Position numbers and translations under genes: made by a program. Shown here in pieces: positions 14,168 through 55,322 of a stretch of 64,000 bases of DNA. The notes below the pieces were generated by a model that was not told the origin of the DNA, did not search any database, and was given only the letters and a program-made list of their open reading frames with translations. The number at the start of each line of letters is the position of its first letter. The first letter of the stretch is position 1. Source of the DNA: Escherichia coli (lineage in GTDB: Bacteria > Pseudomonadota > Gammaproteobacteria > Enterobacterales > Enterobacteriaceae); the NCBI RefSeq assembly GCF_003018255.1, contig NZ_CP027440.1, one strand, 5' to 3'.

Positions 14168-15490
14168 TTGTTTCTCGCACAAGAAATTATTCGTAAAAAA
14201 CGTGATGGTCATGCGCTGAGCGATGAAGAAATTCGTTTCTTTATCAACGGTATTCGCGACAACACTATCTCCGAAGGGCAGATTGCCGCCCTCGCGATGA
14301 CCATTTTCTTCCACGATATGACAATGCCTGAGCGTGTCTCGCTGACCATGGCTATGCGAGATTCAGGAACCGTTCTCGACTGGAAAAGCCTGCATCTGAA
14401 TGGCCCGATTGTTGATAAACACTCGACCGGCGGCGTCGGCGATGTCACTTCGCTGATGTTGGGGCCGATGGTCGCAGCCTGCGGCGGCTATATTCCGATG
14501 ATCTCCGGTCGCGGCCTCGGTCATACTGGCGGTACGCTCGACAAACTGGAATCCATCCCTGGCTTCGACATTTTCCCGGATGACAACCGTTTCCGCGAAA
14601 TTATTAAAGACGTCGGCGTGGCGATTATCGGCCAGACCAGCTCACTGGCTCCGGCGGATAAACGTTTCTACGCGACCCGTGATATTACCGCAACCGTGGA
14701 CTCCATCCCGCTGATCACTGCCTCTATTCTGGCGAAGAAACTGGCGGAAGGTCTGGACGCGCTGGTGATGGACGTGAAAGTAGGTAGCGGCGCGTTTATG
14801 CCGACCTACGAACTCTCTGAAGCCCTTGCCGAAGCGATTGTTGGCGTGGCTAACGGCGCTGGCGTGCGCACCACCGCGCTGCTCACCGATATGAATCAGG
14901 TACTGGCCTCCAGTGCAGGTAACGCGGTTGAAGTTCGTGAAGCGGTGCAGTTCCTGACGGGTGAATATCGTAACCCGCGTCTGTTTGATGTCACGATGGC
15001 ACTGTGCGTGGAGATGCTGATCTCCGGCAAACTGGCGAAAAATGACGCCGAAGCGCGCGCGAAATTGCAGGCGGTGCTGGACAACGGTAAAGCGGCAGAA
15101 GTCTTTGGTCGTATGGTCGCGGCACAAAAAGGCCCGACCGACTTCGTTGAGAACTACGCGAAGTATCTGCCGACAGCGATGCTGACGAAAGCAGTCTATG
15201 CTGATACCGAAGGGTTTGTCAGTGAAATGGATACCCGCGCACTGGGGATGGCAGTGGTTGCAATGGGCGGCGGACGCCGTCAGGCATCTGACACCATCGA
15301 TTACAGCGTCGGCTTTACTGATATGGCGCGTCTGGGCGACCAGGTAGACGGTCAGCGTCCGCTGGCAGTTATCCACGCGAAAGACGAAAACAGCTGGCAG
15401 GAAGCGGCGAAAGCGGTGAAAGCGGCAATTAAACTTGCCGATAAAGCACCGGAAAGCACACCAACTGTCTATCGCCGTATCAGCGAATAA
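14168..15490 (+). CDS. deoA: Thymidine phosphorylase
   Basis: 440-aa product if initiated at TTG 14168 ([15 protein letters not shown]...), which is the start I recall for E. coli deoA; the track ORF extends upstream. Confidence 0.88.
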
Positions 15491-15520
15491 CGGTATACTG
15501 ATCTGATCATTTAAATTTGA

Positions 15521-16765
<1,245 letters not shown>

Positions 16766-49118: not shown

Positions 49119-51035
49119 ATGGGTAAAATAATTGGTATCGACCTGGGTACTACCAACTCTTGTGTAGCGATTATGGATGGCACCACTCCTCGTGTACTGG
49201 AGAACGCCGAAGGCGATCGCACCACGCCTTCTATCATTGCCTATACCCAGGATGGTGAAACTCTGGTTGGTCAGCCGGCTAAACGTCAGGCAGTGACGAA
49301 CCCGCAAAACACCCTGTTTGCGATTAAACGCCTGATTGGCCGCCGCTTCCAGGACGAAGAAGTACAGCGTGATGTTTCCATCATGCCGTTCAAAATTATT
49401 GCTGCTGATAACGGCGACGCATGGGTCGAAGTTAAAGGCCAGAAAATGGCACCGCCGCAGATCTCTGCTGAAGTGCTGAAAAAAATGAAGAAAACCGCTG
49501 AAGATTACCTGGGTGAACCGGTAACTGAAGCTGTTATCACCGTACCGGCATACTTTAACGATGCTCAGCGTCAGGCAACCAAAGACGCAGGCCGTATCGC
49601 TGGTCTGGAAGTAAAACGTATCATCAACGAACCGACCGCAGCTGCGCTGGCTTACGGTCTGGACAAAGGTACTGGCAACCGTACTATCGCGGTTTATGAC
49701 CTGGGTGGTGGTACTTTCGATATTTCTATTATCGAAATCGACGAAGTTGACGGCGAAAAAACCTTCGAAGTTCTGGCAACCAACGGTGATACCCACCTGG
49801 GTGGTGAAGACTTCGACAGCCGTCTGATCAACTACCTGGTTGAAGAATTCAAGAAAGATCAGGGCATTGACCTGCGCAACGATCCGCTGGCAATGCAGCG
49901 CCTGAAAGAAGCGGCAGAAAAAGCGAAAATCGAACTGTCTTCCGCTCAGCAGACCGACGTTAACCTGCCGTACATCACTGCAGACGCGACCGGTCCGAAA
50001 CACATGAACATCAAAGTGACTCGTGCGAAACTGGAAAGCCTGGTTGAAGATCTGGTAAACCGTTCCATTGAGCCGCTGAAAGTTGCACTGCAGGACGCTG
50101 GCCTGTCCGTATCTGATATCGACGACGTTATCCTCGTTGGTGGTCAGACTCGTATGCCAATGGTTCAGAAGAAAGTTGCTGAGTTCTTTGGTAAAGAGCC
50201 GCGTAAAGACGTTAACCCGGACGAAGCTGTAGCAATCGGTGCTGCTGTTCAGGGTGGTGTTCTGACTGGTGACGTAAAAGACGTACTGCTGCTGGACGTT
50301 ACCCCGCTGTCTCTGGGTATCGAAACCATGGGCGGTGTGATGACGACGCTGATCGCGAAAAACACCACTATCCCGACCAAGCACAGCCAGGTGTTCTCTA
50401 CCGCTGAAGACAACCAGTCTGCGGTAACCATCCATGTGCTGCAGGGTGAACGTAAACGTGCAGCTGATAACAAATCTCTGGGTCAGTTCAACCTGGATGG
50501 TATCAACCCGGCACCGCGCGGCATGCCGCAGATCGAAGTTACCTTCGATATCGATGCTGACGGTATCCTGCACGTTTCCGCGAAAGATAAAAACAGCGGT
50601 AAAGAGCAGAAGATCACCATCAAGGCTTCTTCTGGTCTGAACGAAGATGAAATCCAGAAAATGGTACGCGACGCAGAAGCTAACGCCGAAGCTGACCGTA
50701 AGTTTGAAGAGCTGGTACAGACTCGCAACCAGGGCGACCATCTGCTGCACAGCACCCGTAAGCAGGTTGAAGAAGTGGGCGACAAACTGCCGGCTGACGA
50801 CAAAACTGCTATCGAGTCTGCACTGACTGCACTGGAAACTGCTCTGAAAGGTGAAGACAAAGCCGCTATCGAAGCGAAAATGCAGGAACTGGCACAGGTT
50901 TCCCAGAAACTGATGGAAATCGCCCAGCAGCAACATGCCCAGCAGCAGACTGCCGGTGCTGATGCTTCTGCAAACAACGCGAAAGATGACGATGTTGTCG
51001 ACGCTGAATTTGAAGAAGTCAAAGACAAAAAATAA
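49119..51035 (+). CDS. dnaK: Molecular chaperone DnaK (Hsp70)
   Basis: 638-aa ORF, Hsp70 signatures IDLGTTNS and DLGGGTFD. Confidence 0.97.
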
Positions 51036-51123: not shown

Positions 51124-52254
51124 ATGGCTAAGCAAGATTATTACGAGATTTTAGGCGTTTCCAAAACAGCGGAAGAGCGTGAAATCAAAAAGGCCTACAA
51201 ACGCCTGGCCATGAAATACCACCCGGACCGTAACCAGGGTGACAAAGAGGCCGAGGCGAAATTTAAAGAGATCAAGGAAGCTTATGAAGTTCTGACCGAC
51301 TCGCAAAAACGTGCGGCATACGATCAGTATGGTCATGCTGCGTTTGAGCAAGGTGGCATGGGAGGCGGCGGTTTCGGCGGCGGCGCAGACTTCAGCGATA
51401 TTTTTGGTGACGTTTTCGGCGATATTTTTGGCGGCGGACGTGGTCGTCAACGTGCGGCGCGCGGTGCTGATTTACGCTATAACATGGAGCTCACCCTCGA
51501 AGAAGCTGTACGTGGCGTGACCAAAGAGATCCGCATTCCGACTCTGGAAGAGTGTGACGTTTGCCACGGTAGCGGTGCAAAACCAGGTACACAGCCGCAG
51601 ACCTGTCCGACCTGTCATGGTTCTGGTCAGGTGCAGATGCGCCAGGGTTTCTTTGCCGTGCAGCAGACCTGTCCACACTGTCAGGGCCGCGGTACGCTGA
51701 TCAAAGATCCGTGCAACAAATGTCATGGTCATGGTCGTGTTGAGCGCAGCAAAACGCTGTCCGTTAAAATCCCGGCAGGGGTGGACACTGGAGACCGCAT
51801 CCGTCTTGCGGGCGAAGGTGAAGCGGGCGAGCATGGCGCACCGGCAGGCGATCTGTACGTTCAGGTTCAGGTTAAACAGCACCCGATTTTCGAGCGTGAA
51901 GGCAACAACCTCTATTGCGAAGTCCCGATCAACTTCGCTATGGCGGCGCTGGGTGGCGAAATCGAAGTACCGACCCTTGATGGTCGCGTCAAACTGAAAG
52001 TGCCTGGCGAAACCCAGACCGGTAAGCTGTTCCGTATGCGCGGTAAAGGCGTCAAGTCTGTCCGCGGTGGCGCACAGGGTGATTTGCTGTGCCGCGTTGT
52101 CGTCGAAACACCGGTAGGCCTGAACGAGAAGCAGAAACAGCTGCTGCAAGAGCTGCAAGAAAGCTTCGGTGGCCCAACCGGCGAGCACAACAGCCCGCGC
52201 TCAAAGAGCTTCTTTGATGGTGTGAAGAAGTTTTTTGACGACCTGACCCGCTAA
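51124..52254 (+). CDS. dnaJ: Co-chaperone DnaJ (Hsp40)
   Basis: 376-aa product; J-domain HPD motif, Gly/Phe-rich region, four CxxCxGxG zinc-finger repeats. Confidence 0.95.
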
Positions 52255-52265
52255 TCTCCCCAAAA

Positions 52266-52289
52266 GCCTGCCCGTGGGCAGGCCTGGGT
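52266..52289 (+). terminator. Putative terminator after dnaJ
   Basis: gcctgcccgtgggcaggc hairpin just after the stop. Confidence 0.55.
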
Positions 52290-52357
52290 AAAAATAGGGT
52301 GCGTTGAAGATATGCGAGCACCTGAAAAGTGGCGGGGATCACTCCCCGCCGTTGCTC

Positions 52358-52510
52358 TTACTCGGATTCGTAAGCCGTGAAAACAGCAACCTCCGTCTGG
52401 CCAGTTCGGATGTGAACCTCACAGAGGTCTTTTCTCGTTACCAGCGCCGCCACTACGGCGGTGATACAGATGACGATCAGGGCGACAATCATCGCCTTAG
52501 GCTGCTTCAT
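52358..52510 (-). CDS. hokC: Type I toxin HokC (Gef), Hok/Gef family membrane toxin
   Basis: 50-aa ORF MKQPKAMIVALIVICITAVVAALVTRKDLCEVHIRTGQTEVAVFTAYESE. Confidence 0.85.
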   Translation of the reverse strand: MKQPKAMIVALIVICITAVVAALVTRKDLCEVHIRTGQTEVAVFTAYESE

Positions 52511-52567
52511 TGCTCTCTTCTCCTTGACCTTACGGTCAGTAAGAGGCACTCTACATGTGTTCTGCAT
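52358..52567 (-). CDS. mokC: Overlapping regulatory ORF MokC (same frame as hokC, N-terminally extended)
   Basis: 69-codon in-frame extension upstream of hokC, as in hok/mok/sok loci. Confidence 0.6.
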   Translation of the reverse strand: MQNTCRVPLTDRKVKEKRAMKQPKAMIVALIVICITAVVAALVTRKDLCEVHIRTGQTEVAVFTAYESE

Positions 52568-52613
52568 ATAGGGGGCCTCGGGTTGATAGTAAAATATCAC
52601 TCGGGGCTTTTCT
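52559..52613 (+). ncRNA. sokC: Possible SokC antisense RNA (antitoxin of hokC)
   Basis: Positional inference from the K-12 arrangement, where sokC overlaps the mokC start in antisense; no independent sequence signal checked. Confidence 0.3.
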
Positions 52614-53095
52614 CTATCTGCCGTTCAGCTAATGCCTGAGACAGACAGCCTCAAGCACCCGCCGCTATTATATCGCTCTCTTTAACCCATTCTGTTTTAT
52701 CGATTCTAATCCTGAAGACGCCTCGCATTTTTATGGCGTAATTTTTTAATGATTTAATTATTTAACTTTAATTTATCTCTTCATCGCAATTATTGACGAC
52801 AAACTGGATTATTTTTGAAGTATTGGCCTAACAAACATCGCCGACTGACAACAAATTAATTATTACTTTTCCTAATTAATCCCTCAGAAATCCTGACCTT
52901 AAGCTATGATTATCAGGGCTTAGGGTCACACGTCAGCGCTTACAGCCGTCAAAAACTCATCTCATCACTGATGACGCAAATCCTTCAATGCCTCGTAAAA
53001 AGCGAATTATTCCTACACTATAATCTGATTTTAACGATGATTCGTGCGGGGTAAGATAGTAAAAACGATCTATTCACCTGAAAGAGAAATAAAAA

Positions 53096-54262
53096 GTGAA
53101 ACATCTGCATCGATTCTTTAGCAGTGATGCCTCGGGAGGCATTATTCTTATCATTGCCGCTATCCTGGCGATGATTATGGCCAACAGCGGCGCAACCAGT
53201 GGATGGTATCACGACTTTCTGGAGACGCCGGTTCAGCTCCGGGTTGGTTCACTCGAAATCAACAAAAACATGCTGTTATGGATAAATGACGCGCTGATGG
53301 CGGTATTTTTCCTGTTAGTCGGTCTGGAAGTTAAACGTGAACTGATGCAAGGATCGCTAGCCAGCTTACGCCAGGCTGCATTTCCAGTTATCGCCGCTAT
53401 TGGTGGGATGATTGTGCCGGCATTACTCTATCTGGCCTTTAACCATGCCGATCCGATTACCCGCGAAGGGTGGGCGATCCCGGCGGCTACTGACATTGCT
53501 TTTGCACTTGGTGTGCTGGCGCTGTTGGGAAGTCGTGTTCCGTTAGCCCTGAAGATCTTTTTGATGGCTCTGGCTATTATCGACGATCTTGGGGCCATCA
53601 TTATCATCGCATTGTTCTACACTAATGACTTATCGATGGCCTCTCTTGGCGTCGCGGCTGTAGCAATTGCGGTACTCGCGGTATTGAATCTGTGTGGTGT
53701 ACGCCGCACGGGCGTCTATATTCTGGTTGGCGTGGTGTTGTGGACTGCGGTGTTGAAATCGGGGGTTCACGCAACCCTGGCGGGGGTAATTGTCGGCTTC
53801 TTTATTCCTTTGAAAGAGAAGCATGGGCGTTCTCCAGCGAAGCGACTGGAGCATGTGTTGCACCCGTGGGTGGCGTATCTGATTTTACCGCTGTTTGCAT
53901 TTGCTAATGCTGGCGTTTCACTGCAAGGCGTCACGCTGGATGGCTTGACCTCCATTCTGCCATTGGGGATCATCGCTGGCTTGCTGATTGGCAAACCGCT
54001 GGGGATTAGTCTGTTCTGCTGGTTGGCGCTGCGTTTGAAACTGGCGCATCTGCCTGAGGGAACGACTTATCAGCAAATTATGGCGGTGGGGATCCTGTGC
54101 GGTATCGGTTTTACTATGTCTATCTTTATTGCCAGCCTGGCCTTTGGTAGCGTAGATCCAGAACTGATTAACTGGGCGAAACTCGGTATCCTGGTCGGTT
54201 CTATCTCTTCGGCGGTAATTGGATACAGCTGGTTACGCGTTCGTTTGCGTCCATCAGTTTGA
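53096..54262 (+). CDS. nhaA: Na+/H+ antiporter NhaA
   Basis: 388-aa polytopic membrane ORF ([19 protein letters not shown]...). Confidence 0.93.
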
Positions 54263-54321: not shown

Positions 54322-55227
54322 ATGAGCATGTCTCATATCAATTACAACCACTTGTATTACTTCTGGCATGTCTATAAAGAAGGTTCCGTGGTTGGCGCAG
54401 CGGAGGCGCTTTATTTAACACCACAAACCATTACCGGACAGATTCGGGCGCTGGAAGAGCGCCTGCAAGGCAAATTATTTAAGCGCAAGGGACGTGGCCT
54501 CGAGCCCAGCGAGCTGGGAGAGCTGGTCTATCGCTATGCCGATAAAATGTTCACCTTAAGCCAGGAAATGCTGGATATCGTCAACTATCGCAAAGAGTCC
54601 AACTTATTGTTTGATGTTGGTGTGGCAGATGCACTTTCCAAACGTCTGGTCAGCAGTGTTCTGGATGCCGCAGTTGTGGAAGACGAGCAGATCCATCTAC
54701 GCTGTTTCGAATCGACGCACGAGATGCTTTTAGAGCAGTTGAGTCAGCATAAACTGGATATGATCATCTCTGACTGTCCGATCGATTCCACTCAGCAGGA
54801 AGGGCTGTTTTCCATGAAAATTGGCGAATGTGGTGTCAGTTTCTGGTGCACTAACCCACTACCAGAAAAGCCGTTTCCTGCCTGTCTTGAAGAGCGTCGT
54901 TTACTTATTCCGGGGCGTCGCTCAATGTTGGGGCGTAAGCTATTAAACTGGTTTAACTCCCAGGGCTTGAACGTCGAAATTTTGGGTGAGTTTGATGATG
55001 CTGCGTTGATGAAAGCCTTTGGGGCGACGCATAACGCTATTTTCGTTGCACCTTCGCTTTACGCTAATGATTTCTATAACGATGACTCGGTTGTGGAGAT
55101 AGGCCGTGTTGAGAACGTGATGGAAGAGTACCACGCGATTTTTGCCGAAAGGATGATTCAGCACCCTGCAGTACAGCGTATCTGCAATACAGACTATTCT
55201 GCGCTGTTTACTCCAGCTTCAAAATAA
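54322..55227 (+). CDS. nhaR: LysR-family transcriptional activator NhaR
   Basis: 301-aa product from [41 protein letters not shown] (LysR HTH). Confidence 0.9.
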
Positions 55228-55271
55228 ACATTTGTACTTTGCAGGCCGAATTTTGGCCTGCAGATGGATAT

Positions 55272-55299
55272 AAAAAAACCCGCCAGAGCGGGTTTTTTT
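55272..55299. terminator. Bidirectional terminator between nhaR and rpsT
   Basis: aaaaaaacccgccagagcgggttttttt: hairpin flanked by A- and T-runs. Confidence 0.8.
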
Positions 55300-55322
55300 A
55301 CAAAGCTGACAACAACAGGCAA

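Follow-up and report, generated by a model that had tools for sequence, protein, structure and literature searches.

In the laboratory strain Escherichia coli K-12, the chromosomal toxin gene hokC has an insertion sequence as its neighbour (IS186A, annotated between dnaJ and hokC at 15387–16731 of MG1655), which raises the question of how the same interval is organised in a strain devoid of this element and whether its absence bears on the control of the Hok toxin. An earlier note on the 64,000-nucleotide stretch of E. coli DNA studied here (the window) had described the K-12 arrangement correctly, and had proposed that the hokC/mokC/sokC locus is uninterrupted in the window, with about 100 bp from dnaJ to hokC and without transposase ORF or terminal inverted repeat, a configuration that may affect Hok regulation. 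As detailed below, the sequence bears out each of these points. The gene order in the window is dnaK, dnaJ, an 841-bp spacer, nhaA and nhaR, with the following coordinates:

49119–51035: dnaK, upstream of dnaJ in the window
51124–52254, plus strand: dnaJ coding sequence, the left neighbour of the locus (ORF list and K-12/RefSeq annotation)
53096–54262, plus strand: nhaA coding sequence, its right neighbour (ORF list and K-12/RefSeq annotation)

The spacer (52255–53095) holds a complete hokC/mokC/sokC locus, in which hokC lies on the minus strand and its stop codon is 103 bp from that of dnaJ. It is 100% identical to the corresponding sequence of E. coli JNE23-011, for which RefSeq gives the same gene order and the label mokC toxin. 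We are highly confident that this interval is an intact chromosomal type I toxin–antitoxin module, the IS186 target of which was never occupied. Along the minus strand, a promoter whose −10 box is good comes first, followed by the tac box and the target of SokC, then by the frames of mokC and hokC, and finally by a G+C hairpin, the fbi (fold-back inhibition) box and a terminator. All the cis elements are thus present and arranged as is usual for hok-family loci; the predicted sokC and its putative promoter lie on the opposite, plus strand. The individual elements are:

52667–52672, minus strand: −10 box of the hokC promoter, TATAAT, read from the sequence, 6 nt upstream of the probable transcription start
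52649–52660, minus strand: tac box, GGGUGCUUGAGG, at the 5′ end of the hokC mRNA
52508–52660, minus strand: hokC mRNA leader, which spans the tac box, the target of SokC and the start codons of mokC and hokC (Rfam RF01794)
52559–52617, plus strand: predicted SokC antisense RNA (K-12 ncRNA annotation transferred by alignment)
52524–52552, plus strand: putative sokC promoter, TTGACC and CACTCT separated by 17 bp (placed from the annotated K-12 sokC start)
52358–52567, minus strand: mokC, 69 aa, in frame with hokC and sharing its stop codon, with Gln at position 2 where K-12 has Leu (Leu2Gln) (K-12 annotation via gapless alignment)
52358–52510, minus strand: hokC, encoding the 50-aa toxin, with the change His4Pro compared with K-12 (Pfam PF01848, K-12 alignment and translation)
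52331–52350, minus strand: G+C hairpin 3′ of hokC, GGCGGGG AGUGAU CCCCGCC, which is the empty IS186 target (K-12 junction analysis and fold)
52297–52309, minus strand: fbi box, CUUCAACGCACCC, pairing with mRNA nt 1–12 in the minimum-energy fold
52265–52284, minus strand: terminator hairpin of the full-length hokC mRNA, GGCCUGCCCACGGGCAGGCU followed by UUUU (fold)

Regarding the coding part, the 50-aa HokC peptide (minus strand 52358–52510, MKQPKAMIVALIVICITAVVAALVTRKDLCEVHIRTGQTEVAVFTAYESE) is a small hydrophobic toxin of the Hok/Gef type, matching the whole of the Pfam model PF01848 (HOK_GEF) over residues 6–47 with 85.5 bits (cut-off of 22). The overlapping mokC frame, collinear with that of K-12, has its start codon under SokC (52559–52617). 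Within hokC, the window retains a UACG motif at the codon of Tyr47 (TAC, 52369–52372, minus strand), which we take to be the Tyr-to-Cys A-to-I editing site known for the K-12 hokC mRNA, described in a passage of PMC12214031 as 9% edited. An ORF of 111 codons also runs antisense to hokC (52304–52639, plus strand); it has no family support, and the G+C richness of the hokC frame is its best explanation.

Upstream, the leader (153 nt including the hokC start codon) is recognised by the Rfam model RF01794 (“sok”) over all of its positions (1–157 of 157) with 118.8 bits (gathering score of 59, E = 5e-28), as expected for a structured hok/sok leader, while no other RNA family was reported by a scan of 51800–53600 at E ≤ 1. 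Transcription of hokC probably starts at 52660, where both the Rfam model and the homology to plasmid hok loci begin. Searching for the sokC promoter, as the earlier note had proposed, located it at 52524–52552 (plus strand), within a segment (52501–52562) showing no substitution with respect to K-12, so that the promoter itself is identical, whereas the predicted SokC RNA differs from its K-12 counterpart by three bases. SokC is predicted to fold into a 9-nt unpaired 5′ tail, a long hairpin and a U-run (−23.6 kcal/mol, z = −4.7). A consensus promoter/terminator scan reported neither the hokC and sokC promoters nor the hokC terminator, because the −35 box of hokC is poor, the −10 box of sokC is weak and the U-run of the terminator counts only four bases. 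The three promoter-like matches that the scan did return were discarded as being near chance (3 found vs. 1.4 expected).

Downstream of the coding frames, the G+C hairpin (−18.5 kcal/mol, z = −4.8) is followed by the fbi box at 52297–52309 (minus strand), another element that the earlier note had suggested looking for, and then by the terminator hairpin (−21.4 kcal/mol, z = −3.6), which stands back to back with the end of dnaJ and is the last hairpin when the entire mRNA is folded. Based on the layout of the hok family, the latter hairpin (52265–52284) is the probable 3′ end of the message. According to a passage of PMC3562002, the hokC transcript of strain ECOR24 is about 330 nt long; such a length implies an end at the G+C hairpin and not at the predicted terminator, and the full-length 3′ end is therefore uncertain. 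The fold of the 402-nt hokC transcript (−168.7 kcal/mol, z = −6.95) includes the long-range pairing between tac and fbi that characterises hok/sok loci: mRNA nt 1–12 engage with 52297–52309 in 12 predicted pairs, with per-base probabilities of 0.95–1.0. When the tail past the G+C hairpin is removed, the 5′ end is predicted to fold locally instead, leaving a separate and exposed hairpin over the SokC target.

Comparison with plasmid loci points in the same direction. The hok/sok (parB) locus of plasmid R1 and the hok homologues of IncY and P1-like plasmids (annotated “hokD”) share the element order and the Rfam and Pfam families of the window locus. The alignment of the hokC mRNA with plasmid homologues, which are about 74% identical to it, covers nt 1–365 and so runs exactly through fbi. 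Their tac box (GGGUGCUUGAGG) is identical and their fbi box occupies the same place after a GGCGGGG...CCCCGCC hairpin, so that the tac–fbi helix keeps 12 of 12 pairs, all standard, in three of these homologues, the one difference being a G-U pair replaced by G-C. In contrast, only 6 of 12 pairs are left in one plasmid copy, whose fbi has been replaced by IS186. The sequence support for the helix is thus conservation plus one one-sided change and not compensatory covariation, no compensatory pair having been found among the plasmid homologues compared. Within E. coli, seven IS-free hokC mRNAs are 99% identical and their tac and fbi boxes barely vary, which makes a covariation test uninformative at this level. 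Moreover, the window locus differs from the plasmid ones in being chromosomal, in having mokC in the hokC frame with a common stop codon, and in lacking an 18-nt insert found in the leader hairpin of the plasmid copies.

To what extent does the locus differ from that of K-12? In the K-12 spacer, the core of IS186 (1339 bp, CATAAGCGC...GCGCTTATG) lies within a direct 10-bp duplication (GGATCACTCC). Once IS186A and one copy of the duplication are subtracted, 841 bp remain, which align with 52255–53095 without any gap and with 26 substitutions (96.9% identity), the result of the dnaJ–nhaA alignment that the earlier note had advised. At the gef/sof (hokC/sokC) locus of MG1655 (b4412/b0018/b4413), neither the sokC promoter, tac and fbi nor the two hairpins differ from the window, whereas the 1339-bp element and the 10-bp duplication in the 3′ hairpin are found in K-12 only. 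The target GGATCACTCC is present in a single copy in the window (52336–52345), in the middle of GGCGGGG-ATCACT-CCCCGCC (52331–52350), and no scar or second copy was found there. None of the hallmarks of an IS186 insertion (23-bp terminal repeats, InsL transposase gene, duplicated GGATCACTCC) was observed: a search of all 64 kb for the 23-bp terminal repeat, allowing up to three mismatches, gave no match, searches of the 64-kb window with the full IS186 (blastn) and with its transposase (tblastn) returned chance-level matches only (E > 1), none of them in the interval, and 52255–53095 contains no transposase-like ORF. A hidden remnant of IS186 or another mobile element in the interval can be ruled out with near certainty, given the absence of repeats and matches, the length of the spacer and the gapless alignment.

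The insertion point in K-12 is inside the G+C hairpin, 22 bp past the hokC stop codon, and thus appears to be within the hokC transcription unit rather than in neutral spacer. There, IS186 displaces fbi and the terminator by 1.3 kb from hokC, while both are intact in the window. For a K-12 transcript of the same length reading into the element, only the open 5′ conformation is predicted, and hence the K-12 hokC mRNA is predicted to be unable to form the tac–fbi lock. It is because the element cuts the gene off from fbi and the terminator that its absence bears on Hok regulation, as the earlier note had surmised.

Taken together with the hok/sok paradigm of plasmid R1, from which the following steps are borrowed (the sequence elements and the predicted pairings being from this analysis), these features suggest how the locus might operate. 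Briefly, a full-length hokC mRNA of about 400 nt would be made constitutively and at a low level, and the tac–fbi pairing would lock it in a form allowing neither translation nor SokC binding. Slow trimming of the 3′ end down to the G+C hairpin would take off fbi, after which the 5′ end would refold so that the ribosome-binding site of mokC and the target of SokC become accessible. SokC, an unstable RNA, would pair with the trimmed mRNA and RNase III would cut the duplex; once SokC is exhausted, mokC would be translated, along with hokC, which is coupled to it, and the 50-aa Hok peptide would depolarise the inner membrane. In K-12 and in about 30% of the sequenced strains, IS186 in the G+C hairpin would strip fbi and the terminator from the transcript, and the K-12 mRNA would therefore be incapable of taking the locked form. 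The window would then represent the ancestral, regulated state.

The distribution of the element was examined in 5426 complete E. coli genomes using three junction-spanning queries. Laboratory and clinical clones are over-represented in this collection, and the percentages below describe the database rather than nature:

Empty site: 3814 genomes (70%) of 5426
IS186 in the K-12 orientation: 677 genomes (12.5%)
IS186 in the opposite orientation: 927 genomes (17%)

Together, these three states account for 5418 genomes, out of 5425 that gave any match. The IS-free configuration is thus the majority state and K-12 is the unusual one. At face value, a site struck as often as this one (677 + 927 occupied genomes, in both orientations) might also have been occupied in the window as it is in K-12, as lineages may gain and lose the element, in which case a precise excision would have restored the hairpin. 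Yet, the window has one clean copy of GGATCACTCC and no scar, and the empty site, besides being the majority state, occurs in genomes with widely varying degrees of flank divergence; in addition, precise excision of IS4-family elements is rare. We therefore hold such a loss to be very improbable. A site emptied in this way and one never occupied are inseparable by sequence alone, and the functional outcome is the same for both.

Returning to the site as never occupied, the preference of IS186 for it deserves some comments. The IS186 target consensus is a G-run, a short spacer and a C-run, and such a target is also provided by the G+C hairpin, which protects the hok mRNA once processed and has the form GGGG-N6-CCCC. 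IS186 is found at the same base of hokC, in both orientations, in about 30% of the complete E. coli genomes. One example of each orientation was compared, and both have the 10-bp duplication GGATCACTCC; in the reverse one (strain 720632), the element is identical to the IS186A of K-12 over 1339 of 1339 positions. The two orientations may stem from independent insertions or from inversion in place. In a hok homologue on an IncY plasmid (CP057289.1), too, an IS186 end falls on the corresponding base of the hairpin. One might go further and argue that repeated insertion reflects selection for uncoupling hokC from the fbi lock, and not target preference alone, with IS-free strains such as the present one keeping a HokC that is functional, inducible and endowed with a physiological role (e.g., persistence, as reported for hokB), an idea that we regard as doubtful.

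An intact hokC sequence need not mean an active killer, and the locus, though complete, could be a silent relic, with poor translation or the private His4Pro and Leu2Gln changes preventing killing or any role. According to a passage of PMC7337300 citing Pedersen and Gerdes, chromosomal hok loci fail to stabilise plasmids, and their translation in vitro is poor. Natural alleles with lesions exist as well (a nonsense mutation at codon 3 in Z135-3, IS150 in the leader in MSB1_9D and IS1 in that of SL124), which suggests weak purifying selection on activity, and coding changes private to the window allele would fit this picture. On the other hand, no lesion affects the frames, the two promoters, tac, fbi or the two hairpins, which show 99% conservation across phylogroups. 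Moreover, His4Pro is unlikely to be damaging, because the Hok of plasmid R1 has Pro at position 4 too. A passage of PMC9841398 further describes a lone chromosomal copy of R1 hok as lethal without Sok. Altogether, we consider it rather unlikely that the locus is such a relic, and retain the reading of an intact module.

As for the allele itself, the substitutions private to the window with respect to six other IS-free E. coli are at 52325, 52500 (HokC His4Pro) and 52588, while MokC Leu2Gln (52563, also within SokC), which differs from K-12, is common to four of these six. The A at 52588 adds an A-U pair to the leader hairpin and turns a G-U pair of the SokC stem into A-U, whereas the A at 52325 creates a UUUU run after the G+C hairpin. 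At least 99% identity over a 1041-bp region was observed in only 95 of 5425 genomes. Regarding the lesions mentioned above, the change in Z135-3 is from CAG to TAG, the IS150 of MSB1_9D lies between hokC and nhaA, with the homology breaking at window position 52581 (in the hokC leader/sokC), and the IS1 of SL124 comes with a sulfatase fragment at the hokC locus. In some strains (e.g., FDAARGOS_1254), ompK-like and sulfatase genes directly follow hokC in the place of nhaA, whereas at 52780–53095 the window has the short spacer of K-12 type, without ompK-like or sulfatase genes.

The IS-free hokC is an already known, common and published state of a well-known locus. Pedersen and Gerdes 1999 (Mol Microbiol) are credited, in passages of PMC3562002, PMC7337300, PMC7232551 and PMC12214031, with an IS-free hokC in ECOR24, with a disruption of fbi by IS186 in K-12 and with the observation that hokA, hokC and hokE of K-12 have IS elements near their reading frames. 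Passages of PMC7337300, PMC7232551 and PMC12214031 present the hok loci of K-12 as inactivated by IS elements that are absent from wild strains, whereas PMC3562002, in the passage concerned, words the case more specifically, IS186 being thought to disrupt fbi in K-12, and PMC7232551 mentions strain NRG857c as likewise IS-free at hokC. The window agrees with the hokC/sokC of natural isolates such as ECOR24 in its dnaJ–nhaA position, gene set, fbi box and lack of IS186, and differs from it in allele only. The finding matters little beyond correct annotation, apart from being a reminder that the K-12 locus is atypical: studies of how hokC is regulated, of its toxicity or of mRNA editing, when done in K-12, deal with a transcript without fbi and terminator, whereas most natural E. 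coli, including the present strain, have the complete regulatory unit. As for our census, it puts figures on the known preference of IS186 and could guide the choice of strains for studies of chromosomal hok loci.

Finally, a second insertion sequence of K-12 is absent from the same neighbourhood. The IS1A located between nhaR and rpsT in K-12 is missing from the window (55000–55322), where the gap measures 95 bp, compared with 1194 bp in K-12. Some 420 bp that flank IS1A in K-12 have no counterpart in the window. Over roughly its last 220 bp, nhaR shares only 80% identity with K-12, which suggests the boundary of an old recombination or deletion.
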